This document shows positions 23,045 to 63,116 of a stretch of DNA of 64,000 nucleotides, one piece after another (within the stretch, counting starts at the first letter, position 1; every line of letters starts with the position of its first letter). Source of the stretch: Flectonema sp. DT1601 (taxonomy: Eukaryota); assembly GCA_964019425.1 (NCBI GenBank), contig OZ025806.1:558001-622000 (forward strand). The letters run 5' to 3'. Under the pieces are notes generated by a model that was not told the origin of the DNA, searched no databases, and saw nothing but the letters and a program-made list of their open reading frames with translations. Made by a program: the position numbers and the translations under genes.

Positions 23045-23075
<31 letters not shown>

Positions 23076-29980: not shown

Positions 29981-31380
29981 GAATTTAAAATAAAATAAAA
30001 AAAAAAAGAATAAACAATGTTATCATTGTTTTTTTATCGATCGACTATGTCGATCACTTTCTATTTTCCGTCCTGGTCAAGACGCTAAACTGATTGTTTT
30101 TTTTTTCAAAATTAATAAAAAAGAATATAAAAAAATACAAAAAAAGGAATAAACAATGTTATCATTGTTTTTTTTTATCGTTCCACTTTGTCGACTAATT
30201 TCTATTTTCCGTTTTTTTTTTTCTTTAAAAAATAAATAAAAAGAATTTAAAATAAAAAAAAAGAATAAACAATGTTATCATTGTTTTTTTTTATCGATCG
30301 ACTATGTCGATTACTTTCTATTTTCCGTCCTGGTCAAGACGCTAAACTGATTGTTTTTTTTCAAAATTAATAAAAAAGAATATAAAAAAAATAAAAAAAA
30401 AAGAATAAACAATGTTATCATTTTTTTTTTTATCGTTCGACTTTGTTGACTAATTTCTATTTTCCATTTTTTTTTTCTTTTTAAAAATAAATAAAAAGAA
30501 TTAAAAAAAAAAAAAAAAAAAGAATAAACAATGTTATCATTGTTTTTTTTTATCGATCGACTATGTCGATTACTTTCTATTTTCCGTCCTGGTCAAGACG
30601 CTAAACTGATTGTTTTTCTTTAAAAATAAATAAAAAGAATAAAAAAAAAAAAAAAAAGGAATAAACAATGTTATCATTGTTTTTTTTATCGATCGACTAT
30701 GTCGATTACTTTCTATTTTCCGTCCTGGTCAAGACGCTAAACTGATTGTTTTTTCTTTAAAATAATAAAAGGATTTAAAAAAAAAAAAAAAAAAAAAAGA
30801 ATAAACAATGTTATCATTGTTTTTTTTTTCTATCGATCGACTATGTCGATTAATTTCTATTTTCCGTCCTGATCGAGACGCTAAACTGATTGTTTCCTTT
30901 TTTTTAAATAATACTGCAACTGGAAATATTACTGCGCTGAATAATTACTGCGGGGAAATATTACTGCGCGGAAAAATTAGTGCGGTTTTTTTGAGAAAAT
31001 ATTAGTGCGGTTTTTTCCACTTGGTGGTAGAAAAAAATTTGGTTGCTTTTTTGCTGTGTAAGGCACCAGCAGAAAAATGCAGCTGGAGAAAAAATCACTT
31101 CTGAGCAGAAATATTAGTGCGGTGGAAATATTACTGCGTGGAAAAATTAGTGCGGTTTTTTGCAGATTTGGAAATTAGTGCGGTATTTTCCGCGCAGTAA
31201 TATTTCCAGTTGCAGTAAATAAAAAAAAAAAGAAAAAAAAAAAAAAAGAGCATCTCCCTGCTATCCCTCATATCCCCACAATAATATTATACCTTTTCAT
31301 TTTCTCTTTCCTTTTCTGGTCTTTTTTTTTTTTTTCTTCTTTTTTTTTTCCTTTTTCATACAACGTTTTTTATTTATATA
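29981..31380 (+). repeat. Family A array and partial head in inverted orientation
   Basis: Monomers read GAATAAACAATGTTATCATTG..TCGATCGACTATGTCGAT..CCGTCCTGGTCAAGACGCTAAACTG. The head is cut at the TATATA tract by the 31381 copy. Confidence 0.85.
30914..31215. mobile_element. 302-bp MITE with TA duplication (Tc1/mariner-type target)
   Basis: TIR CTGCAACTGGAAATATTACTGCGC. Comparison with the empty site AAATAATAAATAA in other family A copies shows TA duplicated. Internal ATTAGTGCGG/ATTACTGCG repeats. Confidence 0.88.
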
Positions 31381-32373: not shown

Positions 32374-32639
32374 TATATACAAATAAAAAACGTTTTATGA
32401 AAAAGGAAAAAAAAGAAAAAAAAAAGACCAGAAAAGGAAAGAGAAAATGAAAAGGTATAATATTATTGTGGGGATATGAGGGATAGCAGGGAGATGCTCT
32501 TTTTTTTTTTTTTTTTTTTTTCTTATTTATTATTTAAAAAAAGGAAACAATCAGTTTAGCGTCTCGATCAGGACGGAAAATAGAAATTAATCGACATAGT
32601 TGATCGATAGAAAAAAAAACAATGATAACATTGTTTATT

Positions 32640-32672
<33 letters not shown>

Positions 32673-33474
32673 TTTTTAATTATTTTAAAGAAAAAACAAT
32701 CAGTTTAGCGTCTTGACCAGGACGGAAAATAGTAAGTAATCGACATAGTCGATCGATAAAAAAAAAACAATGATAACATTGTTTATTCCTTTTTTTTTTT
32801 TTTTTATTCTTTTTATTTATTTTTAAAGAAAAAACAATCAGTTTAGCGTCCTGACCAGGACGGAAAATAGAAAGTAATCGACATAGTCGATCGATAAAAA
32901 AAACAATGATAACATTGTTTATTCTTTTTTTTTTTTTTTTTTTAATTCTTTTTATTTATTTTTAAAAAGAAAAAAAATGGAAAATAGAAATTAGTCAACA
33001 AAGTCGAACGATAAAAAAAAACAATGATAACATTGTTTATTCTTTTTTTTTTTTTTTTTTTATATTCTTTTTTATTAATTTTGAAAAAAAAAACAATCAG
33101 TTTAGCGTCTTGACCAGGACGGAAAATAGAAAGTAATCGACATAGTCGATCGATAAAAAAAACAATGATAACATTGTTTATTCTTTTTTTTTTTATTTTA
33201 AATTCTTTTTATTTATTTTTTAAAGAAAAAAAAACGGAAAATAGAAATTAGTCGACAAAGTCGAACGATAAAAAAAAACAATGATAACATTGTTTATTCT
33301 TTTTTTTGTATTTTTTTATATTCTTTTTTATTAATTTTGAAAAAAAAACAATCAGTTTAGCGTCTTGACCAGGACGGAAAATAGAAAGTAATCGACATAG
33401 TCGATCGATAAAAAAAACAATGATAACATTGTTTATTCTTTTTTTTTTTTTTTTTTTTAAATTATTTTTATTTA

Positions 33475-36400
33475 GGAGAATTCTCCGTTGCCTACATAAA
33501 AAAAAGTTTTTTCTCCGTTGCCTGTCACCTTAACTTTTTTTTCTCCGTTGCCTGCACCCAAAAAGTTTTTTCGCTGTTGTGAACAACTCTTTTTTTTTTT
33601 TCTCTGTTGGGTACCAGCACTTTTTTTTTTTCTCTAAAAAAAAATTTTTTTTCTGGAAAAAAAAAAAAAAAAAAAAAAAAAGAAAAAAGAAATAAGAAAA
33701 AAAATCAGAGGTAGAATCTTCATATCTTCTCACATTCTTGACAGTGTTTCCTTGTTAGACGAAAAGTTTTATAAAGCAAGAATAGAAAACACTATAAATG
33801 AATCAGATGATGACCTTGCATCGAAAAATATTAAAGCTCATCAGATGATGAACTTGAATCACACTTCTTTCTCTTTCCGGATATCCGGTTTCTCCTAATC
33901 GATGTATCGACAGTCTTCTTGGGGGCCGACTTCTTCGCTGATTTCTTGGGGGCCGACTTCTTGGGGGCCGATTTCTTAGGGGCTGACTTCTTCGGGGCCG
34001 ACTTCTCGTGTAAGGGGTTTTTACACGTAGTCTTATTGTGGCCCACCTTACCACAACGACTACACAAGTTCTTTCCCTCCCCTTTGGAAGGAATCCTCTT
34101 CGTGGGGGCACCCTTCGGCTTCTTCGTTGTTGGCGGTAACAGTTCAGTCTTCGCCGACTGAAACTGATACAGCCCAACTGGCCGTACTGGGTCGTCATAC
34201 GCCTTTCGTAAGGCTCCCAAACGAAAGCAGGTTGGAACGTACTGCATCTCGTTGAAACCAAGAAACCTGTTTATTTAGTCCAATAAATTCGCCACAAGTA
34301 GCGTTGACCACGACAACAAAAAGACAAAAAGAAGAAGTACCTGATAGCCGCACAGGTATGAACGCATGGCAAGGCAGTCTGCTCTGGGAGCAAACAGGTG
34401 CAAGCCATTTCTTTACCCACCAGCTTGACCAACTCCTGCCTCTGTCCATGTACAACGTTCGCTGTTTGTTGTTATTATCCCTGCAGATGATTCTACAAGC
34501 CCCGAGAAAGATACCATACCTTCAAACACTTCGCCTTCGTGCATCACTGGTTCAACAGTGAACACTGCTGCTTCAACGGCAGCCGTCTCCACGATCTCTC
34601 GCACCCACCCCAAAACCATCTCGTCATCACCCTCTGCATCGTGCGCACTACGCCGTCGCTCGTAGTGCCACTTCTGCACAATGCTGACAATGCTGTTAAG
34701 CATCCCCAACACATTCTTGTCCCTGGCTGAAGAGATAACATTGTTAAACCCTTCAGCCAGGTTGTTCGTACTTTGATTGTACGTCCTAGAGCGGATTGCA
34801 CCGCGAGCCCAAGTCTCAGGCTCCTTTTCATCCAGGTATTCGTGGAGTACTTCAAGCTCGTTCTCCTCCGCAGACTCACCAAGAGCATCAAACATGGGTA
34901 GGAACCTGTATGAAGGTGCCGTACACAGATGTTTGAACCTACCAAACATCTCCTTGCTGAACTTGGCCTTGATGTTTCGACCCATGTGTTGTGTGCATTT
35001 GAGGGCAATCACATCGTTGTAATCCCCACGAAGCACCGACAGTAGGCCCTTGTCCTGATCGGCCATAAGGCCAAACCCTTCGCCCAAAAACTCCGGAACC
35101 TTCACCGCCGACTCCAGCTTCCCAAGGAAGTACTTCCACCCTTCGGCGTCTTCATTGCCTATCAAGGCGAAACCCACAGGGAATTGACTTCCCAGTGGGT
35201 CCATTGCAACAAATGTAAGCAATGTCCCCAAGTAATGTGCTCGTAAGAAGCACCCATCAACAACCCCAAATCCCCCCGGACATGCACCTACACCCTCCAG
35301 CGATGCCCCCAAAGCAAGGAAAAAGGACTTAAACCTTCCACCCTCTTCTTTTATGTCCCACTGGGTACCGGGGTTTTGTTCCGCCAGTGAGGTGAACCAG
35401 GCCTGTAACCAGGCAAATCCCTCATGGGGGTCACCATTGATCTCTTTATCGGCCTCTCCGAGGGCCCGGTATACAGTATCCTTCCCTACTGTTATGCCGC
35501 AAGACTTTAAGTCTTGTACAAGGTGGGACTTTTTATATTTTGTACCCAACTCCTTGTATTTTGCCAGGGAAAGGTAGGCTATTGTGGTCTTGAGCCCGTA
35601 CACCCTCCCCTCCCCAGGGTTGCAAGCGTCCGTATGCCGCAGCTGTGACACCGTCACAGTTCTCTCTTCACAACTCCCTGTAGCGCACACCCTCCACTCA
35701 CATGAGTCGGATGTGCAATGGAACGATATCCGGTTCTCACGCTTTTGTCTGCTAAACCTCCTTCCAGTGGAGCAGCAGGCGAGGGTGACGCTTGCCAGGA
35801 GTGCACTCTCGCTAGGGAAGACACGTCCCAGGGTTGGTGTCGGAACATTGAACACCGGCACGTTTATGGTCGGGACAGGTGTAACAGTATCCTCAGATGC
35901 GATCACAGGTGCAGTCTGCGGGGAGTCCATGTTTCCAGGCATTTGGTAGTAGGTAGGTAGGTAGGTAGGTGTTGAGTAGTTATTATCTGGAAACGTAGAG
36001 TAAAAAAACAAACAAACTATCAAGGGGACCTAGGTCCAGAACAGCAAGAAAAAAATGAGAATCCCTAAAACCACTACCAAAATTTATTTTCAGCCACAAA
36101 GTTTCCATGAACACCCTCTCACCTTAAGCGCACACGGATGTTGAGATAACGTTTGTACGATGTTCATCTGGCTTGACGAGATTAGCAAAGACAAGTACTC
36201 ACGGAAAGGTTGGGTTGTTCGTCAGGTCTTGATAGTGTTCTCAGCCTCTGGGAGTTTTACTACAAGTGCATGCAAAGAACGGTATGTGTGCAGGGCTGGG
36301 TCACCTTACAGAGAACTGTTGTCCTCTTACACGTCATTCCAACCGAATTTCAAGGCCAAGACACCTGCGAGTTACAGACAGCCTGGTCGCAAGCGACACT

Positions 36401-36981: not shown

Positions 36982-38566
36982 TTTTATTTATTTTTTAAAG
37001 AAAAAAAAACGGAAAATAGAAATTAGTCAACAAAGTCGAACGATAAAAAAAAACAATGATAACATTGTTTATTCTTTTTTTTTATTTTTTTTTTTTAATA
37101 TTTTTTTTTATTTTGAAAAAAAAACAATCAGTTTAGCGTCTTGACCAGGACGGAAAATAGAAAGTAATCGACATAGTCGATCGATAAAAAAAACAATGAT
37201 AACATTGTTTATTCTTTTTTTTTTTTTTTTTTTTTTTTTAAATTCTTTTTATTTATTTTTTAAAGAAAAAAAAAACGGAAAATAGAAATTAGTCAACAAA
37301 GTCGAACGATAAAAAAAAAAAAAAAAAAAAAACAATGATAACATTGTTTATTCTTTTTTTTTATTTTTTTTTTTTAATATTTTTTTTTATTTTGAAAAAA
37401 AAACAATCAGTTTAGCGTCTTGACCAGGACGGAAAATAGAAAGTAATCGACATAGTCGATCGATAAAAAAAACAATGATAACATTGTTTATTCTTTTTTT
37501 TTTTTTTTTTTTTTTTTTAAATTCTTTTTATTTATTTTTTAAAGAAAAAAAAAACGGAAAATAGAAATTAGTCAACAAAGTCGAACGATAAAAAAAAAAA
37601 AAAAAAAAAAACAATGATAACATTGTTTATTCTTTTTTTTTATTTTTTTTTTTTAATATTTTTTTTTTATTTTGAAAAAAAAAAAACAATCAGTTTAGCG
37701 TCTTGACCAGGACGGAAAATAGAAAGTAATCGACATAGTCGATCGATAAAAAAAAACAATGATAACATTGTTTATTCTTTTTTTTTTGTATTTTTTTTAT
37801 ATTCTTTTTTATTAATTTTGAAAAAAAAAACAATCAGTTTAGCGTCTTGACCAGGACGGAAAATAGAAAGTGATCGACATAGTCGATCGATAAAAAAACA
37901 ATGATAACATTGTTTATTCTTTTTTTTATTTTAAATTCTTTTTATTTATTTTTTAAAGAAAAAAAAAAAAACGGAAAATAGAAATTAGTCGACAAAGTCG
38001 AACGATAAAAAAAACAATGATAACATTGTTTATTCTTTTTTTTGTATTTTTTTATATTCTTTTTTATTAATTTTGAAAAAAAAAAAACAATCAGTTTAGC
38101 GTCTTGACCAGGACGGAAAATAGAAAGTGATCGACATAGTCGATCGATAAAAAAAACAATGATAACATTGTTTATTCTTTTTTTTTATTTTAAATTCTTT
38201 TTATTTATTCTTTAAAGAAAAGAAACGGAAAATAGAAATTAGTCGACAAAGTCGAACGATAAAAAAAAACAATGATAACATTGTTTTTCCTTTTTTTTTT
38301 TTTTTTTTATATTCTTTTTTATTAATTTTGAAAAAAAAAAACAATCAGTTTAGCGTCTTGACCAGGACGGAAAATAGAAAGTGATCGACATAGTCGATCG
38401 ATAAAAAAACAATGATAACATTGTTTATTCTTTTTTTTTATTTTAAATTCTTTTTATTTATTCTTTAAAGAAAAGAAACGGAAAATAGAAATTAGTCGAC
38501 AAAGTCGAACGATAAAGAAAAAACAATGATAACATTGTTTATTCTTTTTTTTTTTTTTTTTTTATA

Positions 38567-38775
38567 TAAGACATCTAAACTGCAGCCCAGCTTATGCCCA
38601 ATGCACTAACAGGTCATTCCCTCACACTCAGATCAAAAAATCAAAGTTCAGAGTGCATCTTAGCATGAATGAGAGAATTTCTCATCGCTTTTTTTGAACA
38701 AAAGGGATAGAAGAGGGGATAGAAAACGAACATAACAATAAAATTCTAAGTGAGAAACACTTAGCAGAAACACTT
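38567..38775 (-). repeat. Family C internal fragment
   Basis: Matches ~54053-54261. Confidence 0.85.
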
Positions 38776-38784
38776 CCAACGATT

Positions 38785-38821
38785 CCAACGATTCTAAAGC
38801 TACAGTTTCTGTACTTTATTG
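38785..38821 (+). other. Spliced-leader (mini-exon) sequence, diplonemid type, fused to a 5' UTR
   Basis: CCAACGATTCTAAAGCTACAGTTTCTGTACTTTATTG matches the euglenozoan SL core ACAGTTTCTGTACT.TATTG. It is followed by CAAA rather than the GT of an SL-RNA gene. Confidence 0.9.
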
Positions 38822-40113
38822 CAAATTTTGCTCTTCTTTCTGTTTATATTAAAACAAAAGAATGTCTACACCACCAATTGTGGAAATTCCGCATGTAGAA
38901 TCTGAGATGGATTTAGATTCAATTCTGTTTGAGGATTTGAGGACGGTGAGAGCACAATCACCACGTGCCACCATCGGGGAAGCAGGGACGTTTTGGGATC
39001 CCCAATCCAAAATGTCCGAAGAAATGATGAAGAACAATTCGTTGGCCTTGATTGGAAGAGAAGCAGTATATTGTATGAGGAAGGAAGGGGAATCAAGTTG
39101 GAATTGGTATTGTGGCTTATTGTCAATGGTGGGTAATATGGGGAGGGTAACCTTGTCAAATTCGACAAGTCTTTTAAGGGGTGTGTATCGACACACGGGG
39201 CCGGACGAAACGTTCGACTTTCCACATGCGGGCTTTGAATATGCCCATGTGATAAGCAAGGATGTGTATTGGGATGAGTGGTCAAAAAGGTTAGTTCTAG
39301 AAAATGAACAAAAGATGTTAGGCATGTGCCAAAAGGTAACTAATTTGGAATCGCAGGTGGCGTCATTGTTATCGCCACAGATGCATGGTGCGCAACCCCA
39401 GCCACAGGTGCATGGTGCGCAACCTCAGCCACAGATGCATGGTGCGCAACCCCAGCCACAGATGCATGGTGCGCAACCCCAGCCACAAATACAACAAGAG
39501 AGTAGTATGATGCAACAAATGATGGCACTATTATCGCAAAATCAACAATTATGTCAGATGCAGATACAACAAACAAACGAATTGTTAAAAAACAAGGGCG
39601 GCGTAAAATGCCAATTGTCACCGGAAAATGTGGATTGCATCGAATTTGAGCTGGCGTCAGAAGCAACGAATGTGTTGCAGTGGCGCAATATACTGATACA
39701 AGGAGGGGCGGAAAGATTACTCGATAAGTTGGAGAATAAATATTGGTTACCACATAGTGGCAAAGTAGCAACCCGTGAACTGAGAGAGTTAAGGGGAGCA
39801 TTTGAAGTAGTGCGAGACAACATCAAAGCCATGAGCGTATCAACTATAGACTGGGTCACTTCAAAGCCCCTTGTCAGGAGCATGAACAAGTCGCTAGAGA
39901 ACTTGATCATGAAGTGGCAGCTGAATTTCGATAAAGTGGGAAGTAACGGACTGGGAGCTTTTGGCTCCTGCCCTATTCCCGATGTAAACTTTCTTTTTAT
40001 TTTTATTTTTTTTAACAGGCCCAAAGGGCGACAATGATGGTTGCTGACCAAGGAATAATATTCAAATGAATTTTCGTTTCAAAGAAACGAACAGAATTAA
40101 GAGAGAGGCAGAG

Positions 40114-40144
<31 letters not shown>

Positions 40145-40235
40145 GAGAAAAAAAAATGAAGAGGAAATAATCAAACATGAAAAAAAAAAAAAAAAAAAAA
40201 TATATATATAAATAAAAAACGTTGTATGAAAAAGG

Positions 40236-40285
<50 letters not shown>

Positions 40286-40503
40286 CCAGAAAAGGAAAGA
40301 GAAAATGAAAAGGTATAATATTATTGTGGGGATATGAGGGATAGCAGGGAGATGCTCTTTTTTTTTTTTTTTTTTTTTTTTTTCTTATTTATTATTTAAA
40401 AAAAGGAAACAATCAGTTTAGCGTCTCGATCAGGACGGAAAATAGAAATTAATCGACATAGTTGATCGATAGAAAAAAAAACAATGATAACATTGTTTAT
40501 TCA

Positions 40504-40535
<32 letters not shown>

Positions 40536-40797
40536 ATTTTAAAGAAAAAACAATCAGTTTAGCGTCTTGACCAGGACGGAAAATAATAAGTAATCGACAT
40601 AGTCGATCGATAAAAAAAAAACAATGATAACATTGTTTATTCCTTTTTTTTTTTTTTTTTTATTCTTTTTATTTATTTTTAAAGAAAAAACAATCAGTTT
40701 AGCGTCCTGACCAGGACGGAAAATAGAAAGTAATCGACATAGTCGATCGATAAAAGAAACAATGATAACATTGTTTATTCTTTTTTTTTTTTTTTAT

Positions 40798-41558
40798 CAT
40801 AGATGGAAGTGCCCTACAATTTGGAGGGCGTGTAGGGCGCTTTTAATATAAATATTATTTTGGAGGGCGCTTTTTTTTACCTTTTTTATTACTATAAGAC
40901 AGCTAAATTGACGTCGACTTACACTGACGCACAAGTATTTTGACGCAGAAGCCAAAAATTTTTTTGACATGCTTGGCAGTCTTTCGAAAAAGAGAAAAAA
41001 GGGTGTCACGGGGTTCGAACCCGAGACCTCCAGGTCATGGTTCGGAGGTCAACAATGGCAAAAACAATGGGCCACTCCTTGAGAGCTTCCGGAGCCTAGT
41101 GCAATCCCTGAAGCTGAAACTCATTTCAGTGGACGATGCATCCCAGATCTACAAGGAGCTGATTAGCCCGCAGAATGCACCGAGTCGAATATAGAGGGAT
41201 TCGAGGAGGGAGAGAGTGCGTTCTTGCTAGCCTGTTAATAGGTCGGTCTTCACGGTACCTTGTGAGAAAAAAAAAGAAGTTTACTGGTGGCAAGTAAACT
41301 GATATCCCAGAGACGCATTTGATCGGGCGAACCGGAGAAAAGTCAAATAAGATGCGATTCGACCCTCGCTGAGGGCAGGGGTGTGTCAAAATGAGCTCGG
41401 CATTATATTAAATTTAATTAAAAAAGCGCCCTACGCGCCCTCCAGCGCCCTATTTTGGCCCTATTTTGGCCCTACAATGGCACTATTTTGGCCCTACAAA
41501 TTTTTGTGGCTGATTTTCACCAGGCGCCCTCCAAATTTGGAGGGCACTTCCATCTATG
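40798..41558. mobile_element. 761-bp non-autonomous TIR element, 6-bp TSD, superfamily uncertain
   Basis: TIR CATAGATGGAAGTGCCCT.CAA.TTTGGAGGGCG. TTTTAT is duplicated relative to empty array monomers. A tRNA-like A/B box lies on the minus strand at ~41002-41078. Confidence 0.85.
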
Positions 41559-42095
41559 TTTTATTTTAATTCTTTTTATTTATTTTTAAAAAGAAAAAAA
41601 TGGGAAATAGAAATTAGTCAACAAAGTCGAACGATAAAAAAAAACAATGATAACATTGTTTATTCTTTTTTTTTTTATTTTTTTTATATTCTTTTTTATT
41701 AATTTTGAAAAAAAAAACAATCAGTTTAGCGTCTTGACCAGGACGGAAAATAGAAAGTGATCGACATAGTCGATCGATAAAAAAAGCAATGATAACATTG
41801 TTTATTCTTTTTTTTTTTTTTTTTTTTTAAATTCTTTTTATTTATTTTTTAAAGAAAAAAAAACGGAAAATAGAAATTAGTCAACAAAGTCGAACGATAA
41901 AAAAAAACAATGATAACATTGTTTATTCTTTTTTTTTATTTTTTTTTTTTAATATTTTTTTTTTATTTTGAAAAAAAAAAACAATCAGTTTAGCGTCTTG
42001 ACCAGGACGGAAAATAGAAAGTAATCGACATAGTCGATCGATAAAAAAACAATGATAACATTGTTTATTCTTTTTTTTGTATTTTTTTATATTCT

Positions 42096-42926
42096 GGATA
42101 GGAGATTTGGGAGAGGAATAGGGGCAGTGAACTTTTGGTTCAGGCCCTTCCCATCGAACAGGACGAAGACTTCTAAAACCTGAGATGAACCAATTGAGTT
42201 GAAACAAACAAATAACAGAGACGCAACACATACCGGAACATCATCGCAAGCAATGCTTCGGACCTCCGTCGACCTTCGTTCTTCCGGCGGCAAAGGGAAA
42301 CAAGAAAGAACGGGCAATGAGACAAACCTGTTAGTTGGTGTTGTGTTGTTGTTAAAAACAAAAACATAAACGCCAGGAAGTTCGACAACGAAGACATCGA
42401 CATCGATCGCTGCTCTGCAGATGTCCGGCGGGTGTTTGTCTACACTGTGTTTATTGTTTGTTTTTTTCCCAAGGTTCAACCTTGGGAAGAGAAGTAAAAA
42501 ATTCCGTCAATGTTGGCCTTCCTGTTCGAAGGTGCGCACCAATGACGATAAATAGAGTGGGGGGAGAAAACCTTTGATCCAACTGGATCCCTTCACGAGC
42601 TGACATTGCCATGTGAAGTTAAATATTCTGGCGATGCCAGCTCAGGCGACTTAGCCTGCTTTTTTCTTTAAATAAAAAAAATAAAAAGATACCAACAGGT
42701 GGGGTGATGGGTTGCGCCACTGCAATCCAGTCACAAAAAGAAACAAAGGTAATCTCAAGGGTTCTCGACCCTTGGCTCTCCCTGCGCAAGCATCGCATGG
42801 AGGGTGACGCTAAGCACCCGGGGGGTACGAAACAAACTTTCCCCCTGCTGTCCTGTTTGAAATAAAAAAAAAAACAAAGGGATAGAAGTAAACAGAATAC
42901 GTTACACCTCAACAGGTGACGCTAAA
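42096..42926 (-). repeat. Family D element with the conserved terminal stem-loop
   Basis: Stem-loop at 42122-42148. A second copy is split at 47818-47941 and 58534-59160. Confidence 0.85.
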
Positions 42927-43625
42927 TTTTTATTAATTTTGAAAAAAAAACAATCAGTTTAGCGTCTTGACCAGGACGGAAAATAGAAAGTGATCGACAT
43001 AGTCGATCGGTAAAAAAACAATGATAACATTGTTTATTCTTTTTTTTTTTTTTTTTTTTTTAATATTTTTTTTTATTTTGAAAAAAAAAAAACAATCAGT
43101 TTAGCGTCTTGACCAGGACGGAAAATAGAAAGTAATCGACATAGTCGATCGATAAAAAAAAACAATGATAACATTGTTTATTCTTTTTTTTTATTTTAAA
43201 TTCTTTTTATTTATTTTTTAAAGAAAAGAAACAGAAAATAGAAATTAGTCGACAAAGTCGAACGATAAAAAAAAAACAATGATAACATTGTTTATTCTTT
43301 TTTTTTTGTATTTTTTTTAATATTCTTTTTTATTAATTTTGAAAAAAAAAACAATCAGTTTAGCGTCTTGACCAGGACGGAAAATAGAAAGTGATCGACA
43401 TAGTCGATCGATAAAAAAACAATGATAACATACCACTAAGAGAATAAGCTCAGATGATATCGAGCGCTTAGTGAAGTCTGGAAAGACGTTTGATAAAGCA
43501 GTGAGGCTAGCCGAGTTAGATGCAGAGAAAAAGCTGAAGAACGAGTGGAATGGGAAAGGGGATAAGGGGAGAGGAAGTTGGAATCCGCAGAATAAATTTA
43601 AGAGCAGTTATTCAAAGGGATTTTC

Positions 43626-44539
43626 GGGAAACGTTGGGGGGGCTGGCAAAGGTCAAAAGTGAACCGAGGCCAGCCCCGAGTAAAGCGGTGTTTAGTCCGC
43701 GTTGGTCCAGCAAGTTTTCAGAATTTCCATGGTATCAAAGGTTCAGGAAAGGTTTCCCTAGGAAAGTCGGTGTCAGAAGGGTCGACCCTTATTCCGGAAC
43801 GGATTTGGGAGATAAGGGAGAATCTCATGCAGTCGGAAGGAGCAGAGGTTTCCACATTGATTGGAAGCCTTATGAAAAACCAGATCGAGGATCAAGTAAG
43901 GAAGATTCAGCGGGTACGGAACAGAGAGTACACGTCGGATTTGACCGACTCGTTAATGGTGATGGAACAAATCGCCGGGAAGATCTGGGCGCAAAGCACA
44001 ATGAGAAGTCGACAGTGCTTGTGGGACCGTCTGCTAATTTGGGTGGAGAGAAACGATGTCCCTGTAAATCAGGATACAGTTGCGTTGTTTGTGACAGCGA
44101 CAAAGGTATCGAAGCAAGGAATGTTGGCCTACGCAAAGGCGTTCTCAGGCATGCTGAAGAGGATGGGATTGGAGAACGAGACATTGAAGCAGCTAGCGGC
44201 GGCGCTAAGGGCAGACGGCGCTGCGGTGCCGTTGGAGCAGGCGGAACCGATAAATCGTTCTGTTTTGATTGCGTGGGCAATGAAGCAAGATGTTCAGCTG
44301 AAGACGGGCTTACTGATCGCATGGAAATCGGCGGCGAGATGGGGGGAGGTATGGAAGCTGGGGAGAAGAAATTTCGTTTTCATTTCTGTGGAGGAAATAA
44401 TTGTGGATTGGTGGGATGTTCCGAAGGGACGGAGGGAAGATCCTTTCAAACCATCGAGATGGGTAGTGATAAAAGGCTTTTTGACTCCAGAGATAGCCCA
44501 GGGTTTGCTGGTTCTAGGGGACTTTGTAAGTCTGACAAA
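43626..44539 (+). pseudogene. Tyrosine recombinase of TATE/VIPER/DIRS type, 3'-truncated by family A
   Basis: SAM-like N-domain (RQCLWDRLLIW..VALFV..YAKAF), then LRADGA.VP..QAEPI and the first catalytic Arg box LLIAWKSAARWGEV. The H-x-x-R and Tyr part is missing. Confidence 0.8.
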
Positions 44540-44730
44540 GAATTCGATAGAGTGGGAAGTAACGGACTGGGAGCTTTTGGCTCCTGCCCTATTCCCGATG
44601 TAAACTTTCTTTTTATTTTTTTTTTTTTAACAGGCCCAGAGGGCGACAATGACTGTTGCTGACCAAGGAATAATATTCAAATGAATTTTCGTTTCAAAGA
44701 AACGAACAGAATTAAGAGAGAGGCAGAGAA

Positions 44731-44763
<33 letters not shown>

Positions 44764-45085
44764 AAAAAAAAAAAAAATATGAAGAGGAAATAATCAAACA
44801 TGAAAAAAATAAAAAAAAAAATAAAATATAAATAAAAAACGTTGTATGAAAAAGGAAAAAAAAGAAGAAAAAAAAAAAAGACCAGAAAAGGAAAGAGAAA
44901 ATGAAAAGGTATAATATTATTTTGGGGATATGAGGATAGCAGGGAGATGCTCTTTTTTTTTTTTTTTTTTTATTTATTATTTAAAAAAAAGGAAACAATC
45001 AGTTTAGCGTCTCGATCGGGACGGAAAATAGAAATTAATCGACATAGTCGATCGATAGAAAAAAAAACAATGATAACATTGTTTA

Positions 45086-45120
<35 letters not shown>

Positions 45121-47817
45121 CTTTTAATTATTTTAAAGAAAAAACAATCAGTTTAGCGTCTTGACCAGGACGGAAAATAGAAAGTGATCGACATAGTCGA
45201 TCGATAAAAAAACAATGATAACATTGTTTATTCTTTTTTTTTTTTTTTTAAATTCTTATTATTTATTTTTTAAAGAAAAAAAAACGGAAAATAAAAATTA
45301 GTCGACAAAGTCGAACGATAAAAAAAAAACAATGATAACATTGTTTATTCTTTTTTTTTTTGTTTTTTTTTTATATTCTTTTTTATTAATTTTGAAAAAA
45401 AAAACAATCAGTTTAGCGTCTTGACCAGGACGGAAAATAGAAAGTAATCGACATAGTCGATCGATAAAAAAACAATGATAACATTGTTTAATCTTTTTTT
45501 TTTTTTTAAATTCTTTTTATTTATTTTTTAAAGAAAAAAAAACGGAAAATAGAAATTAGTCGACAAAGTCGAACGGTAAAAAAACAATGATAACATTGTT
45601 TATTCTTTTTTTTTATTTTTTTTATATTTTTTTTAATTAATTTTGAAAAAAAAAACAATCAGTTTAGCGTCTTGACCAGGACGGAAAATAGAAAGCGATC
45701 GACATAGTCGATCGATAAGAAAACAATGATAATATTGTTTATTCTTTTTTTTTTATTTTAAATTCTTTTTATTTATTTTTTAAAAAGAAAAAAAAACGGA
45801 AAATAGAAATTAGTCAACAAAGTCGAACGATAAAAAAAAAAACAATGATAACATTGTTTATTCTTTTTTTTTATTTTAAATTCTTTTTATTTATTTTTTA
45901 AAGAAAAAAAAAAAAAGGAAAATAGAAATTAGTCGACAAAGTCGAACGATGAAAAAAAACAATGATAACATTGTTTATTCTTTTTTTTATTTTTTTTTTT
46001 TATTCTTTTTTATTAATTTTGAAAAAAAAAAACAATCAGTTTAGCGTCTTGACCAGGACGGAAAATAGAAATTAGTCGACAAAGTCGAACGATAAAAAAA
46101 ACAATGATAACATTGTTTATTCTTTTTTTATTTTTTTTTTATATTCTTTTTTATTAATTTTGAAAAAAAAAAAACAATCAGTTTAGCGTCTTGACCAGGA
46201 CGGAAAATAGAAAGTAATCGACATAGTCGATCGATAAAAAAAACAATGATAACATTGTTTATTCTTTTTTTTATTTTTTTTTTTTATTCTTTTTTATTAA
46301 TTTTGAAAAAAAAAAACAATCAGTTTAGCGTCTTGACCAGGACGGAAAATAGAAATTAGTCGACAAAGTCGAACGATAAAAAAAACAATGATAACATTGT
46401 TTATTCTTTTTTTATTTTGTTTTTATATTCTTTTTTATTAATTTTGAAAAAAAAAAAACAATCAGTTTAGCGTCTTGACCAGGACGGAAAATAGAAAGCG
46501 ATCGACATAGTCGATCGATAAGAAAACAATGATAATATTGTTTATTCTTTTTTTTTTATTTTAAATTCTTTTTATTTATTTTTTAAAAAGAAAAAAAAAC
46601 GGAAAATAGAAATTAGTCAACAAAGTCGAACGATAAAAAAAAAAACAATGATAACATTGTTTATTCTTTTTTTTTATTTTAAATTCTTTTTATTTATTTT
46701 TTAAAGAAAAAAAAAAAAAGGAAAATAGAAATTAGTCGACAAAGTCGAACGATGAAAAAAAACAATGATAACATTGTTTATTCTTTTTTTTATTTTTTTT
46801 TTTTATTCTTTTTTATTAATTTTGAAAAAAAAAAACAATCAGTTTAGCGTCTTGACCAGGACGGAAAATAGAAAGTAATCGACATAGTCGATCGATAAGA
46901 AAACAATGATAACATTGTGTATTCTTTTTTTTTTATTTTAAATTCTTTTTATTTATTTTTTAAAGAAAAAAACTGAAAATAGAAATTAGTCGACAAAGTC
47001 GAACGATAAAAAAAACAATGATAACATTGTTTATTCTTTTTTTTTATTTTAAATTCTTTTTATTTATTTTTTAAAGAAAAGAAACGGAAAATAGAAATTA
47101 GTCCGATAAAAAAAAAAACAATGATAACATTGTTTATTCTTTTTTTTATTTTTTTTTTTTATATTCTTTTTTATTAATTTTGAAAAAAAAAAACAATCAG
47201 TTTAGCGTCTTGACCAGGACGGAAAATAGAAATTAGTCGACAAAGTCGAACGATAAAAAAAAACAATGATAACATTGTTTATTCTTTTTTTTTTAAATTC
47301 TTTTTATTTATTTTTTAAAGGAAAAAAAACGGAAAATAGAAATTAGTCGACAAAGTCGAACGATAAAAAAACAATGATAACATTGTTTATTCTTTTTTTT
47401 TTTTTTTTATTTCTTTTTATTTATAAAAAAAAACAATCAGTTTAGCGTCTTGACCAGGACGGAAAATAGAAAGTGATCGACATAGTCGATCGATAAAAAA
47501 ACAATGATAACATTGTTTATTCTTTTTTTTATTTTAAATTCTTTTTATTTATTTTTTAAAGAAAAAAAAACGGAAAATAGAAATTAGTCGACAAAGTCGA
47601 ACGATGAAAAAAAACAATGGTAACATTGTTTATTCTTTTTTTTATTTTTTTTTTTTTTATTCTTTTTTATTAATTTTGAAAAAAAAAACAATCAGTTTAG
47701 CGTCTTGACCAGGACGGAAAATAGAAAGTAATCGACATAGTCGATCGATAAAAAAACAATGATAACATTGTTTATCCTTTTTTTTTTTTTTTACTTCTTT
47801 TTATTTATAAAAAAAAA
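44540..47817 (-). mobile_element. Family A element, long array (resumes at ~59161-59816)
   Basis: Head at 44540. Distinctive monomer variants (AAACTGAAAATAG; TTTCTTTTTATTTATAAAAAA) recur after 59160. Confidence 0.82.
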
Positions 47818-48341
47818 GGACAGCAGGGGGAAAGTTTGTTTCGTACCCCCCGGGTGCTTAGCGTCACCCTCCATGCGATGCTTGCGCAGGGAGAGCCAAG
47901 GGTCGAGAACCCTTGAGATTACCTTTGTTTCTTTTTGTGACTTTTTTTTTCGATAAAGTGAGAAGTAACGGACTGGGAGCTTTTGGCTCCTGCCCTATTC
48001 CCGATGTAAACTTTCTTTTTTTTTTTTTTTTTTTTTTTAACAGGCCCAAAGGGCGACAATGATGGTTGCTGACCAAGGAATAATATTCAAATGAATTTTC
48101 GTTTCAAAGAAACGAACAGAATTAAGAGAGAGGTAGAGAAAAAAAAAAAAAAAAAAAAAGAAAGAATAGAAAAAAAATATGAAGAGGAAATAATCAAACA
48201 TGAAAAAAAAAAAAAAAAAAATAAAATATAAATAAAAAACGTTGTATGAAAACGGAAAAAAAGAAAAAAAAAGACCAGAAAAGGAAAGAGAAAATGAAAA
48301 GGTATAATATTATTGTGGGGATATGAGGATAGCAGGGAGAT

Positions 48342-48372
<31 letters not shown>

Positions 48373-49045
48373 ATTTATTATTTAAAAAAAGGAAACAATC
48401 AGTTTAGCGTCTCGATCAGGACGGAAAATAGAAATTAATCGACATAGTCGATCGATAGAAAAAAAAACAATGATAACATTGTTTATTCTTTTTTTTTTTT
48501 TTTTTTTTTTAAATCCTTTTTATTATTTTTAAAGAAAAAACAATCAGTTTAGCGTCTTGACCAGGACGGAAAATAGAAAGTAATCGACATAGTCGATCGA
48601 TAAAAAAAAAACAATGATAACATTGTTTATTCCTTTTTTTTTTTTTTTTTTTTATTCTTTTTATTTATTTTTAAAGAAAAAACAATCAGTTTAGCGTCCT
48701 GACCAGGACGGAAAATTGAAAGTGATCGACATAGTCGATCGATAAAAAAACAATGATAACATTGTTTATTCCTTTTTTTTTTTTTTTTTTTATTCTTTTT
48801 ATTTATTTTTAAAGAAAAAACAATCAGTTTAGCGTCCTGACCAGGACGGAAAATTGAAAGTGATCGACATAGTCGATCGATAAAAAAACAATGATAACAT
48901 TGTTTATTCCTTTTTTTTTTTTTTTTTTTATTCTTTTTATTTATTTTTAAAGAAAAAACAATCAGTTTAGCGTCCTGACCAGGACGGAAAATTGAAAGTG
49001 ATCGACATAGTCGATCGATAAAAAAACAATGATAACATTGTTTAT

Positions 49046-49083
<38 letters not shown>

Positions 49084-50412
49084 TTTTAATTATTTTTTAA
49101 AGAAAAAACAATCAGTTTAGCGTCTTGACCAGGACGGAAAGTAGAAAGTGATCGACATAGTCGATCGATAAAAAACAATGATAACATTGTTTATTCTTTT
49201 TTTTTTTTTTTTTTTTTAATCCTTTTTATTATTTTAAAGAAAAAACAATCAGTTTAGCGTCTTGACCAGGACGGAAAATAGAAAGTGATCGACATAGTCG
49301 ATCGATAAAAAAACAATGATAACATTGTTTATTCTTTTTTTTTTCTTTTTTTTTTTTTTTTTTAACCTTTTAATTATTTTTTAAAGAAAAAACAATCAGT
49401 TTAGCGTCTTGACCAGGACGGAAAGTAGAAAGTGATCGACATAGTCGATCGATAAAAAACAATGATAACATTGTTTATTCTTTTTTTTTTTTTTTTTTTT
49501 TTTTTAATCCTTTTTATTATTTTAAAGAAAAAACAATCAGTTTAGCGTCTTGACCAGGACGGAAAGTAGAAAGTGATCGACATAGTCGATCGATAAAAAA
49601 CAATGATAACATTGTTTATTCTTTTTTTTTTTTTTTTTTTTTTTTTAATCCTTTTTATTATTTTAAAGAAAAAACAATCAGATTAGCGTCTTGACCAGGA
49701 CGGAAAATAGAAAGTGATCGACATAGTCGATCGATAAAAAAACAATGATAACATTGTTTATTCTTTTTTTTTTTTTTTTTTTAAATTCTTTTTATTTATT
49801 TTTAAAGAAAAAAAAAAAACGGAAAATAAAAATTAGTCGACAAAGTCGAACGATAAAAAAAAAACAATGATAACATTGTTTATTCTTTTTTTTTTTGTTT
49901 TTTTTTATATTCTTTTTTATTAATTTTGAAAAAAAACAATCAGTTTAGCGTCTTGACCAGGACGGAAAATAGAAAGAAATTGACATAGTCGATCGATAAA
50001 AAAAAACAATGATAACATTGTTTACTCTTTTTTTTTTTTTTTTTTAAATTCTTTTTATTTATTTTTTAAAAAGAAAAAAAAACGGAAAATAGAAATTAGT
50101 CAACAAAGTCGAACGATAAAAAAAAAAACAATGATAACATTGTTTATTCTTTTTTTTTTTATTTTTTTTTATATTTTGAAAAAAAAAAAAAAAAAAACAA
50201 TCAGTTTAGCGTCTTGACCAGGACGGAAAATAGAAAGTGATCGACATAGTCGATCGATAAAAAAAAACAATGATAACATTGTTTATTCTTTTTTTTTTTT
50301 TGGGAAAACCTACAGATCCACCCCCAGGTTTGGAGAAACGTACACTACGGTCACGGCCTTGTGTAGCATTTTCGACCCCAGAAGATTAAATAAAAAAAAA
50401 CTTTTTTTGCAT

Positions 50413-50726: not shown

Positions 50727-52529
50727 TTATCTGATGGAATCGGGATTGCTTGAAGATGATGATGTCGACATGTCACGCTTCTTCCTCTTCCCTACAATGC
50801 GGGAAGCTCCTTCCGAAGGACCGTAGCGACAACTACGGCTGTTGTGCCCACGCCTTCTACACTTGCCACATTTATTCGGTATTGTCTCACCTGCACTGCG
50901 GATGCGAGTCTTCTTCGGCCTGCCAACACCCTTCCTCACTTCAGGTGGTAGTGTTCCATCAGATGTGGTGTCATGCGCGGGTTCAGGCTTCAGTGTGAGT
51001 TGATAGAGGCTGTCATAGGAAGTTGTCCACAGGTATGCTGGGCACACACGGCTGTCTGTCAATGTGTTTATATCCAGGTGCGCTGCAACTCTCAGAATAT
51101 GCATGCAAGGCAGGTTGTAGCGCCTGTAACTTGGACAGCTACATGTAAAGGGATGCCCTTCCTTCACAACAGAACCTGTTTGGGGTTGGTTTGGCTTGCC
51201 AACTTCAAACTCACCGTCTTCGAGGCTTGTGACTTGATACGTGAAAGCCACAGTTTCCTCACGTATCTTTTGCTCGATCGGTGGGATCGGTCTGTTGGTT
51301 GAGGTTTGTTCGGAGAATGCACCTCGCCTCTCCGCGAGCTTGTCGGTCAACCACCTTCGAGTCTGCTGGATCAGAGTTAAAACTGACCCCTCGCGTGCCG
51401 GCTTCAGCAAAGAGTTTATGCTTTCCACGGCGTTGCTGGTGTAGGTATCACACCTCGCAACATCATCTGGCCAGTAAGCATCTGCCCATCGCTTCATATC
51501 GGTGTTCTTGAGGTACCGATGGGCCTTCTTCCCGTGTTGCTGCTTAACATCCTTCAGCACCTCCACCACCTTCGTGCTGTCCGCCTTTGCCAGTTCCCAC
51601 ACTGTTTTTGTGGCTTCTTGCTTCGTCAGGCTAGTCTCCACAGCAACATTCTTAACCAGGTGGTTAATACAAATAGCGTGGTGGCGAATGGTGTCGTCCA
51701 ACGACGTGTCGGACTCCAGTCCCTTCTGCCTGTCGGAGAACAGTGTAAATCGGGATAGTCGATTTCCATACACAGCCAGTATTTTTCTGTTGTGGAGTGT
51801 CCACGACTGCAAGTCCTCCGACGCGGATATTGTGAACCCCAATGGCAGGAGCTTCCTGTTGGCGTCCAGACCCAGGGTCACCAGTAACACACCGCGAAAT
51901 GACCCATAAAGGCCACATGCGTCAGAGAAGATTACCGGTAGCAGGTAATCAATTGCCACAGGTGGCAGAAACGCCCAGAAGCAGCTGGCGAAAACCAAAT
52001 CCCTGCGTCGTTCAATGGAGAATGTCATCTCCGGATTTTTTTCTTTTAGGGCTTCGAAGTATGATTGGAGCTGCCCATACTCCGACCCTCGCTTTCCATA
52101 CACCTTCTCCTTCGCTATCGCTAACCCCTTTTCCACGGTGCCTTTCTTCACCGGAATATCCCTGAAGCTCTTCAGGTCAACTGCAGCGGCTTTAGGCCCG
52201 TAGTCTGGAAAACTACGCACCTTTTCCTCCAGCACCGATGCCACCCACTCTGCTACTCCATCCCCTTCTCTGTTGCACAAGCCAGGGGAACATGTGTGAG
52301 CTTTCACCTCCCTCACCTGGAGCTCACCTTCCTTGACTACCGCCTTCACAACATACAAGCAGTCTTCTTCATTCTTGCATACCAGGGTGGTTCGGTTGCG
52401 ATCACTCCTTTTCACCCTGAAGGTGTGGCCGTGCGTTGTTGACCACTCAAATACCCTGGCCTTCAGCGCTATGACGGTGGCAAACACTTCACCTTCCGAC
52501 ACCTGCAGTTGTGCAACGTTGTTGTTCAT
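50727..52529 (-). CDS. MULE transposase, 600 aa, intronless
   Basis: MuDR N-domain (GEVF..C...DCLY..HTC), DDE motifs FSDACGL, SDRQKGL, CINH and NAVESIN, SWIM CSC..LPCMH, knuckle CGKCRRRGHNSRSC. Confidence 0.95.
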   Translation of the reverse strand: MNNNVAQLQVSEGEVFATVIALKARVFEWSTTHGHTFRVKRSDRNRTTLVCKNEEDCLYVVKAVVKEGELQVREVKAHTCSPGLCNREGDGVAEWVASVLEEKVRSFPDYGPKAAAVDLKSFRDIPVKKGTVEKGLAIAKEKVYGKRGSEYGQLQSYFEALKEKNPEMTFSIERRRDLVFASCFWAFLPPVAIDYLLPVIFSDACGLYGSFRGVLLVTLGLDANRKLLPLGFTISASEDLQSWTLHNRKILAVYGNRLSRFTLFSDRQKGLESDTSLDDTIRHHAICINHLVKNVAVETSLTKQEATKTVWELAKADSTKVVEVLKDVKQQHGKKAHRYLKNTDMKRWADAYWPDDVARCDTYTSNAVESINSLLKPAREGSVLTLIQQTRRWLTDKLAERRGAFSEQTSTNRPIPPIEQKIREETVAFTYQVTSLEDGEFEVGKPNQPQTGSVVKEGHPFTCSCPSYRRYNLPCMHILRVAAHLDINTLTDSRVCPAYLWTTSYDSLYQLTLKPEPAHDTTSDGTLPPEVRKGVGRPKKTRIRSAGETIPNKCGKCRRRGHNSRSCRYGPSEGASRIVGKRKKRDMSTSSSSSNPDSIR

Positions 52530-52631
52530 TTGAAACTTAAGGATTAATAACTAACGGGGGGTTAAAAAAAAAAATGACGCAACCGGGACTCGAACCGACG
52601 CAGCTGGAAAAAAATTGAGCGGGGAAAAAAG

Positions 52632-53114: not shown

Positions 53115-54900
53115 GTTGAATTTCCAGGTGAGATTTGGACTGTTAGCTTTTGGCTAAGGCCCTCCCTGAAGAGCAAGAACAAAAAAACTACTCACACCTG
53201 AAGAAAACATACACAAAGAACACACTGTAAGCTGTGTGTGTATTTTGTGTTTGTCACAACAGGAGAGAAAAGAAAGAATGTCAAGGTTGGTCACCTTGCC
53301 TATCAACGCACAACATTGGTGGTCTCTACTAGACCCTGAGTGATCCCACTGGATCTCTCATCGTTCATAGTACCCTGTGTGAAGTTATAAAATCAAAGGT
53401 AAACTATGAACTACAAATGACTTAGCCTGTTATTATAATGCCACAGGCAGGCCCTGCATTCAGCAACTATCCAGCAGTGCTTGGATGTCCTGATCTTCTT
53501 CTAAAAAAAAGAAAGAAAAACAAAACTGTAGCTGGGATCACTCAGGATCAACAGACTACCAATGCTACCTGTTGTACTTGCTCACTATGGGGGGTGATGC
53601 CAAACACCCAGAAGTACTAAACTGCTTTCCTTCTTGCTGCCCAGGAGTTTCTGACCAGAACTAATAGAAAATAAAAAGTAGATGGGAAACAATAAAAAGT
53701 AAAATGGATATAACTGAAGTTAAACAAGACAAATGAAGTAACAGACCAGAACAGAAAGAGAATTGTAATAGAAGATTACAAATAAAAAAAATGCAAGATC
53801 AACACATGATCAGGATACACCAGCAGCTAACAAACAACATAAAATTGAAGATCAGTTGCCAGAGTATTTCAACCATGGTAGAATACTCGCCTCTGGCAGG
53901 GATTATCCCAGACTTGTCCTTTAATCTAGTTGGACACCATGGCTTACAACCCTTCCAGAGGGAAGCACCATTATGACTTCTATTTTTTTTCTTCAAGAAA
54001 ATCATAAGGTGGGAACAAAGAAAAATGCTAAGAGGAACCCCCTATTAACACCTAAGACATCTAAACTGCAGCCCAGCCTATGCCCAATGCACTAACAGGT
54101 CATTCCCTCACACTCAGATCAAAAAATCAAAGTTCAGAGTGCATCTTAGCGTGAATGAGAGAATTTCCTCCCGCTTATTTTGAACAAAAGGGATAGGAGA
54201 AGGGATAGAAAACGAACATAACAATAAAATTCTAAGTGAGAAACACTTAGCAGAAACACTTAGCAGTTTTTAGGAGCTGAAAAGCAAAAAAAAAATCTAA
54301 GTGAGAAACACTTAGTAGAAACAATTTGTAGCTAATTAAGCTGAAAATAAAAAAATAAAAAATTCCTAAGTGAGAAATACTTAGCAACTTTTAGAACAAA
54401 TATTTCAGTAAATAACCTGTAATGATTAAACCATTACAAGTTTGATGCCAAAACTGACAAGGACTGAGTTGAATTTCCAGGTGAGATTTGGACTGTTAGC
54501 TTTTGGCTAAGGCCCTCCCTGAAGAGCAAGAACAAAAAAACTACTCACACCTGAAGAAAACATACACAAAGAACACACTGTAAGCTGTGTGTGTATTTTG
54601 TGTTTGTCACAACAGGAGAGAAAAGAAAGAATGTCAAGGTTGGTCACCTTGCCTATCAACGCACAACATTGGTGGTCTCTACTAGACCCTGAGTGATCCC
54701 ACTGGATCTCTCATCGTTCATAGTACCCTGTGTGAAGTTATAAAATCAAAGGTAAACTATGAACTACAAATGACTTAGCCTGTTATTATAATGCCACAGG
54801 CAGGCCCTGCATTCAGCAACTATCCAGCAGTGCTTGGATGTCCTGATCTTCTTCTAAAAAAAAGAAAGAAAAACAAAACTGTAGCTGGGATCACTCAGGA
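53115..54900 (-). mobile_element. Family C element: 1353-bp unit plus a ~430-bp partial tandem copy
   Basis: GTTGAATTTCCAGGTGAGATTTGGACTGTTAGC starts at 53115 and again at 54468. Confidence 0.88.

Positions 54901-63085: not shown

Positions 63086-63116
<31 letters not shown>

Follow-up and report, generated by a model that had tools for sequence, protein, structure and literature searches.

A predicted gag-pol −1 frameshift signal in a rearranged VIPER-like retrotransposon copy of Flectonema sp. DT1601

Gag-like gene, recombinase and slip site at the locus

A 64,000-nucleotide stretch of DNA from Flectonema sp. DT1601 (contig OZ025806.1, positions 558,001 to 622,000; hereafter the window, whose own coordinates are used throughout) carries a rearranged copy of a retroelement with a gag-like gene and a tyrosine recombinase (YR) gene, and the subject of this analysis is a slippery heptamer followed by a hairpin at the end of the gag-like gene, which we interpret as a predicted signal for programmed −1 ribosomal frameshifting (PRF). 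The coding and terminal parts of the copy described below lie on the plus strand. Its 5' untranslated or terminal region (38600..38861) is followed by the N-terminal 354 codons of gag-like ORF1 (38862..39923, ending in LIMKWQ), which were delimited by tblastn with the full-length Gag proteins P0005-P0008. The gene is then split by a 3.5-kb block (39924..43431), in which the family's own 3'-terminal segment (39927-40085) is accompanied by an A-rich stretch, arrays of a 142-bp satellite and further repeats, and it resumes in frame 1 at 43432..43662 with the last 76 codons and a TGA stop (43660-43662), a tail that is 97% identical to the C-terminus of P0005/P0010. The protein P0012 is 100% identical to 38862-40034, and six intact gag gene models of 412-426 aa (P0005, P0007, P0008, P0010, P0013, P0019) map onto 38862-39953 plus 43429-43659. 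Thus, the gag-like ORF1 named in a preliminary description of this locus is a real gene, but only an ATG-less tail of it (43429..43662, 77 codons) stands beside the slip site, the remainder being found at 38862-39923. ORF1 is called gag-like by its position only, since Pfam assigned no family, and no recognised capsid domain, to the Gag proteins at E<=0.1, and a CCHC box (CX2CX4HX4C) was found in none of seven Gag proteins.

Several further observations concern the gag gene itself. The possibility that the flank interrupting it is a foreign transposon ('TE-X') was considered and rejected, as the block carries the family's own 3'-terminal segment. On another contig, a second copy represented by P0009, P0011 and P0001 has its gag interrupted within 4 codons of the break in the window, and rearrangement or template switching may be favoured at this point. 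The idea that P0001 is a spliced model of the window locus was also discarded; it belongs to another copy and its gene model changes frame. Finally, the Gag proteins P0005/P0010 and P0008/P0013/P0019 are almost identical over their first ~190 residues and markedly different in the C-terminal half, a contrast in the aligned sequences that suggests recombination between subfamilies.

Downstream of the gag tail, a tyrosine recombinase ORF in frame 3 runs from its first ATG over 43827..44536 and encodes the core-binding domain, the box-I Arg and the hairpin Lys, the catalytic half with its H..K, H and Y residues being missing; the ORF corresponds to the N-terminal two thirds of the gene and breaks at 44536, where the family's 3'-terminal segment joins. 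The assignment of this ORF to the tyrosine recombinases, made at first from the sequence alone, is now backed by a profile of 40 relatives that matches Cre at E 1.1e-4 and by a structure model of the relative P0036 (pLDDT 90.9), which gave 33 Foldseek matches at E<=1e-3, the top ones being full-length matches to Tre/Cre (E 1.6e-5, TM 0.54), and in which the predicted fold has the two domains (core-binding and catalytic) of a tyrosine recombinase. Pfam was silent or sub-threshold on the window ORFs. Alignment A6 of the 40 relatives (P0003, P0004, P0036 and 37 more) shows no variation at R177 and K206 and very little at H266, H297 and Y310, and it has a Lys (K269, in the motif HSxK[KR]G) in place of the usual second catalytic Arg. 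The recombinase ORF had been described as lacking a nearby ATG, which proved incorrect: an ATG stands in the −1 frame at 43827, before any of the conserved recombinase sequence, and this start places the box-I Arg at residue 166 vs. a median of 161 in the gene models of 59 relatives. Judged from these positions, a recombinase begun at 43827 would be of typical length on its N-terminal side. No longer homologues of the 333-aa ORF were returned by the protein search, a profile search with the YR alignment yielded no related loci in metagenome, viral and genome contigs, and an exact 30-nt pattern had no match in metagenome and viral contigs. In the Atlas, a recombinase of the family has a Euglenozoan cluster as its nearest (score 0.98), which we regard as a lead only.

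Between these two genes, the gag frame reads TCG GGA AAC at 43624-43632 and thereby contains the slippery heptamer G_GGA_AAC (43626..43632) in the register that stops at the TGA of 43660-43662. It is followed by a 6-nt spacer (GTTGGG, 43633..43638) and a stem-loop (43639..43677), in which the G+C-rich arms GGGGCTGGC (43639-43647) and GCCAGCCCC (43669-43677) pair over 9 bp and the gag stop codon lies in the loop. Heptamer, spacer and stem are thus all present as initially noted. Folded alone, 43633-43682 forms the 9-bp stem plus a small inner hairpin at −26.5 kcal/mol (z −4.12), a stability reached by none of 200 shuffled sequences, and a second folding gave the same stem. To place these features in the context of the window, we considered all 406 non-homopolymer X_XXY_YYZ heptamers on both strands and asked which of them are followed, 4-9 nt downstream, by a perfect stem that has 8 bp or more and includes no fewer than 5 G-C pairs. 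Only the heptamer at 43626 is followed by a stem of this kind, and no other of the 406 has a 50-nt downstream fold as stable as its own (−26.5 vs. −19.6 for the next). In the gag register, heptamers of the XXXYYY type occur at 39587, 43614 and 43626, and only the last is accompanied by a stem of the required kind. The first of these, A_AAA_AAC at 39587-39593 on the plus strand, is a second canonical slippery heptamer, located in the middle of gag, whose downstream fold is outside the 12 most stable of the survey. The heptamer at 43626 stands 28 nt upstream of the gag stop and within a 61-nt overlap of gag and pol, so that register, spacing and a stable downstream structure together give the canonical −1 PRF layout recognised in the preliminary description, and they do so at the end of a real gag-like gene. 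The same heptamer, G_GGA_AAC, is used by some plant RNA viruses. An Rfam search of 38000-49000 gave no relevant match.

The frame entered by a −1 shift and the nested recombinase

In the window copy the −1 frame is open across the slip site from 43602 to 44603 and encodes the N-terminal two thirds of the recombinase, in agreement with the original observation, which had led to the proposal of a Gag-YR fusion protein. Related copies give a different picture of where this frame leads. A protein search with P0001 gave 632 matches at E<=1e-3, of which the best 150 were considered; among these is P0023 (573 aa), a cluster mate of which is P0172 (945 aa). Both proteins start with MNRGQPR, which is window frame 3 at 43659-43679 with an ATG in place of the window's GTG, and after one extra residue both continue in window frame 2, P0023 being 97.6% identical to it over 295 residues (aa 5-299). 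Further on they enter a conserved region whose profile matches caulimovirus and Ty3 reverse transcriptase/RNase H (RT/RH) structures in PDB (E 2.4e-7 to 3.7e-4); a Pfam scan gave no family at threshold for pol, with a single sub-threshold match for P0172. P0023 and Gag P0010 are found on contigs of matching size, as are P0172 and Gag P0005. It follows from the reading of P0023 and P0172 that, relative to the window, intact copies of the same subfamily contain four additional bases between 43681 and 43682. Accordingly, the open −1 frame around the slip site (43602..43681) is the start of the pol ORF in intact copies, the loss point of the window copy is 43681..43682, and frame 2 (43682..44536) is the stop-free leader of pol, which overlaps the recombinase gene and is cut at 44536.

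The additional bases are also seen in the sister subfamily. In P0015, which is of the P0008 type and slipped by one base further upstream, frame 2 is followed across the site and ends at a stop made by the extra bases, and the read-contig X1 (537 nt) matches 43614-43681 and shows four additional letters in a loose end before the sequence resumes. Three of the four sequencing runs that share sequence with the window match its flanking repeats only, X1 representing diverged copies. All four other sequences that cover 43681/43682 (P0023 and P0172 of the own subfamily, P0015 and the X1 contig) therefore have the extra bases. With these present, the −1 frame of gag is pol, and the recombinase follows the TGA in the same frame as gag. 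The recombinase is in the −1 frame of the window copy because the four bases are absent from it, and the appearance of a Gag-recombinase fusion most likely reflects a 4-base loss in a dead copy. In the intact copy represented by P0172, the −1 ORF continues as a pol of 945 aa comprising RT/RNase H and a leader of ~400 aa over the whole recombinase gene in another frame; P0023 and P0172 also have an ATG at the gag stop.

A somewhat different arrangement is found in the third subfamily, in which P0100 translates a frame-3-like leader (43677-43814) without the four extra bases and takes up frame 2 only from ~43814. Here too, pol would be continuous with the frame entered at the slip site, provided that gag is placed as in P0007.

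These data bear directly on the proposal that a −1 shift at G_GGA_AAC joins Gag to the recombinase as the normal mode of YR expression. Beyond the open −1 frame of the window, which runs from 43602 through the recombinase domain, it could draw on the similarity between the window and P0002, which extends ~20 codons upstream of the ATG at 43827 with differing Met positions, and on the frame-3-like leader of P0100. That leader likewise ends in pol, however, and P0023, P0172, P0015 and the X1 contig all put pol, not YR, in the −1 frame. In addition, stand-alone YR models starting from Met are the rule among the 59 relatives, with the box-I position agreeing as described above, and pol would be untranslatable without entry into frame 2. 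We therefore do not maintain the fusion by −1 shift, which we rate as the least probable of the readings weighed here.

The nesting of the recombinase within pol is itself reflected in the window sequence. Over the 333 codons of the recombinase-frame ORF (43602-44600), frame 2 contains no stop codon vs. 14.4 expected from permutation of synonymous codons in the recombinase frame, none of 5000 permutations being stop-free; over 354 codons of gag, the frame in the same relative position is interrupted by 14 stops. The open frame 2 spans 43538-44662 on the plus strand in full, and the recombinase gene that it covers in a different frame is strongly conserved. A comparison of the window with the X1 copy over 43997-44219 (40 listed substitutions) yielded 32 synonymous and 2 non-synonymous changed codons in the recombinase frame, as opposed to 2 synonymous and 36 non-synonymous ones in frame 2. 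The lack of stops together with the 36 vs. 2 non-synonymous and synonymous codons indicates that the pol leader is kept open by selection while its residues are free to change. Relatives retain the missing half of the recombinase in hidden form. Indeed, when the catalytic half of P0079 is set against the hidden +1 frame of P0172, 55 of 65 positions agree (at most 28 in shuffles, 24 for shift +2), and in a sample of 23 pol representatives whose leader is 180 aa or longer and which lack an in-frame recombinase, a hidden HSxKxGA-type motif appears at shift +1 in 19 and at shift +2 in none, with a box-I motif besides in 8 of those 19. A Smith-Waterman hidden-frame test of P0001 against distant YRs was not significant. 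In P0025, P0026, P0029 and P0127 the recombinase is in frame with RT. As judged from these alignments, a complete recombinase is nested in the pol leader of intact copies, and the overlap is real and old.

Since in intact copies a single gag UGA separates gag from the in-frame recombinase, as it does by coordinates in the VIPER consensus, two recodings at the gag end are conceivable: the −1 shift into pol and, besides, a UGA readthrough producing a Gag-recombinase fusion. The arrangement of P0100 speaks against such a readthrough fusion being general, and we consider the dual recoding distinctly improbable.

Conservation of the signal and the proposed mode of expression

The preliminary description had left it to relatives to show whether heptamer and stem are conserved, and the comparison partly supports this. 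At the protein level, 13 Gag tails from three subfamilies, the window's among them, were aligned (alignment A4); 11 end in GF[SQ]GNVGGAGKG[QH]K, the other two, P0015 and P0006, being frameshifted or truncated, whereas the stretch directly before this terminus is hypervariable in sequence and length. At the level of bases, the sister subfamily could be reconstructed from P0008 read in the gag frame together with P0015 read in frame 2, which gives a unique solution for 43624-43662 (three printed solutions differ in the stop codon only, and the next frame-2 residue fixes TGA). The reconstructed bases differ from the window only at 43656 and 43659, so that heptamer, spacer and 5' arm appear base-identical in the sister subfamily. 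None of the 8 gag third positions in 43624-43647 is changed, vs. 30 of 74 in the recombinase region (Fisher p 0.021). In the 3' arm, a frame-2 Pro to Ser replacement implies 43670 C>T, which would turn a G-C into a G-U pair with pairing kept. The third subfamily was compared for the signal at the protein level only. The signal thus seems to be kept in the sister subfamily, although this rests on protein readings and on a p value of 0.021.

The latter value bears on the view that the signal arose by chance, i.e., that a G-rich, Gly-rich gag tail (GNVGGAGKG) happens to hold GGGAAAC and a G/C palindrome with no function, its conservation having other causes because the region codes in more than one frame. 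The tail is indeed G-rich and the conservation only modestly significant, but a coincidence would have to produce the single qualifying heptamer of 406 and to place it in gag register within the 61-nt overlap of gag and pol, 28 nt short of the gag stop, and it would have to be reconciled with the last 13 Gag residues being invariant or nearly so in three subfamilies beside a hypervariable stretch. Chance is, in our estimation, very unlikely.

The main alternative dispenses with frameshifting and has pol start at an AUG of its own, situated at the gag stop or immediately after it, either through termination-reinitiation on the overlapping AUGA or on a separately processed mRNA. The slip site and stem-loop would then be kept for some other purpose such as two-frame coding, RNA packaging or reinitiation. 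The positions of the ATG codons agree with it: in P0023 and P0172 the ATG overlaps the gag TGA, the sister subfamily by reconstruction has the same AAATGA, and in P0100 an ATG follows 12 nt behind the gag stop. On the other hand, ATG positions vary between subfamilies, the window copy has GTG, and an ATG within the first 25 codons of such an ORF is not unusual (~0.4 per ORF by our own estimate). Moreover, reinitiation after an ORF of 420 codons is rare in eukaryotes, and an own start leaves unexplained the in-register heptamer at canonical distance from the sole strong hairpin of its kind in 64 kb. Taken together, these points make translation from an own AUG unlikely.

We consider it probable, with due reservation, that the locus holds a dead, rearranged copy of a VIPER-like element, whose slip site and hairpin are predicted to shift ribosomes by −1 into pol, and not into the recombinase, in intact copies. 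The window copy is regarded as dead because its gag is split, its recombinase truncated and its pol absent. The gag-pol reading of the site follows from the joint fit of register, spacing, structure, the 61-nt overlap, an open leader of ~400 codons to enter and the layout of VIPER. In an intact element, a fraction of the ribosomes translating gag would pause on G_GGA_AAC against the hairpin 6 nt downstream and slip back by one base, the Gly codon GGA being re-paired as GGG and the Asn codon AAC as AAA, so that translation would continue as ...FSGN-RWGGWQ... The shifted ribosomes would then cross the stop-free, otherwise unconstrained leader to RT/RNase H and produce a Gag-Pol protein, as in retroviruses, while the recombinase, nested at +1 in the leader and in the gag frame behind the TGA, would be made by another route. 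The window copy itself is expected to give no functional product.

A number of points weigh against this interpretation, in addition to the ATG codons that P0023, P0172 and P0100 have at or near the gag stop. The bases of the sister subfamily come from two protein readings of different copies in one 90% cluster, and conservation over 7+6+9 bases is weakly significant (p ~0.02) because the subfamilies differ by only ~9-18% in DNA; part of it could result from double coding. The X1 contig has 2-3 further mismatches in 43614-43681 that could not be placed and possibly fall in the 3' arm. The four missing bases could in principle themselves be an assembly error, as no sequencing run covers this stretch.

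Surroundings of the element and relation to known systems

The truncated recombinase and pol leader are joined directly to the family's 3'-terminal segment (44537..44700), which is present in 11 copies in the window (at ~22653, 25626, 28738, 31380, 39927, 44537, 47949, 56083, 60019, 60554 and 62676). At 28738-29135 on the minus strand, ~215 nt of the 5' end are joined directly to this segment to form a short derivative with no coding part, and short-derivative sequence of the same family is found at 54086-54261 on the plus strand; accordingly, the first 176 nt of the element (38600-38775) recur by blastn within the window at 28960-29135 (minus strand) and 54086-54261 (plus strand). Arrays of an A+T-rich 142-bp satellite adjoin the element's 5' end and come after the 3' segment (40328-41920, 42870-43431, 45064-47800 and 48318-50300 near the element; further examples at 23046-25207, 29977-30911, 32498-33474, 37009-38567, 59210-59812 and 63088-64000), and this satellite may be a part of the element or its preferred target. 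An inverted repeat of 145 nt (42729-42873 / 47798-47942, 94% complementary) brackets the fragment of gag tail and recombinase together with satellites, and beside its left arm a 525-nt segment (42099-42620) recurs inverted at 58643-59167 (minus strand) with 98.5% identity. Two ORFs of higher G+C content on the minus strand (34413-36029 and 50727-52550) encode MULE transposase domains, the second also SWIM and MuDR DNA-binding domains, and DNA transposons therefore lie beside the retroelement debris.

The closest parallel in overall layout is with VIPER (vestigial interposed retroelement) and TATE, YR retrotransposons of kinetoplastids. The published consensus of Trypanosoma cruzi VIPER places ORF1 at 169-1509, YR at 1510-2517 and RT/RH at 1386-4214 (PMC5146736). 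By arithmetic from these coordinates, pol would be in the −1 frame relative to gag and start before the gag stop, with YR in the gag frame directly behind that stop. The gene order and frame relations of the window family match these consensus coordinates, in line with the TATE/VIPER homologues named in the preliminary description; as far as the available passages describe them, VIPER and TATE share with it the order of gag-like gene, YR and RT/RNase H and the overlap of pol with YR and the gag end. The sizes in VIPER are 446 aa for gag, 335 for YR and 942 for pol by the same coordinates, vs. 412-426 aa for gag and 945 for pol in the window family. The SIRE of VIPER, as described in the accessible part of one source (PMC6681497), resembles the derivative at 28738-29135 in being composed of the 5' and 3' ends. 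Differences are also apparent: VIPER and TATE have kinetoplastid hosts, the host here being characterised as an A+T-rich eukaryote with MULE transposases, and the Gag of the window family has no CCHC box in any of the seven proteins. The passages on VIPER and TATE at our disposal make no mention of a slippery site or hairpin.

Other YR retroelements differ more in their organisation. In the portions available of the sources on DIRS1-like elements, the YR and pol ORFs often overlap extensively (PMC3266345, PMC6681497; an overlap also in PMC3783388), and these elements are thus alike in being tyrosine-recombinase retroelements with overlapping YR and pol. According to the same partial evidence (PMC3266345), they have a methyltransferase domain and carry the catalytic part of YR behind the pol domains, while in the window family YR stands between gag and RT; the Pfam scan of P0172 showed no family beyond its one sub-threshold match, no search being aimed at a methyltransferase. 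Some TATE copies of Bodo saltans consist of a single ORF, as stated in the excerpt at hand (PMC6681497). In these copies, and in the relatives P0025 and P0026, gag-like gene, YR and RT are in one frame, in contrast to the three genes in three frames of the window family, and such single-frame copies, on this partial view of the literature, indicate that YR-containing fusion proteins exist in the group.

Frameshifting by −1 between gag and pol is textbook knowledge. With the signals of retroviruses and some LTR retrotransposons, the site described here shares the X_XXY_YYZ heptamer, the 6-nt spacer, a stable structure, a short overlap and a stop ~30 nt downstream. Retroviruses and LTR retrotransposons differ from the window element, which has a tyrosine recombinase and neither a protease nor a DDE integrase. 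Unlike retroviral pol, the pol of the window family begins with ~400 aa that are unconstrained and must only stay open, because the recombinase gene is nested in this part.

The way in which the overlapping genes of YR retrotransposons are translated is not settled in the literature that we searched, and nothing was found there that links VIPER, TATE, DIRS or Ngaro with a slippery site or ribosomal frameshifting, although the original 2006 description of VIPER, which was outside the search, may bear on this point. The architecture of VIPER, the YR/pol overlap in DIRS1-like elements and gag-pol −1 frameshifting were already known, and the present case is probably an ordinary gag-pol frameshift in an unusual element. 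It also calls for caution, as a small deletion can create a frame relation that is then seen in a single decayed copy. If UGA readthrough were to take place in addition, the Gag-recombinase fusion noted earlier would exist after all, by readthrough instead of frameshift. Overall, if the cassette works, VIPER-like elements use the classical gag-pol frameshift of retroviruses, and this would explain why pol begins upstream of the gag stop codon and why a long leader, stop-free and free in sequence, extends over the recombinase gene. The heptamer, the stem and the predicted junction peptide offer a concrete, testable site for elements that have so far been found mainly in trypanosomatids.

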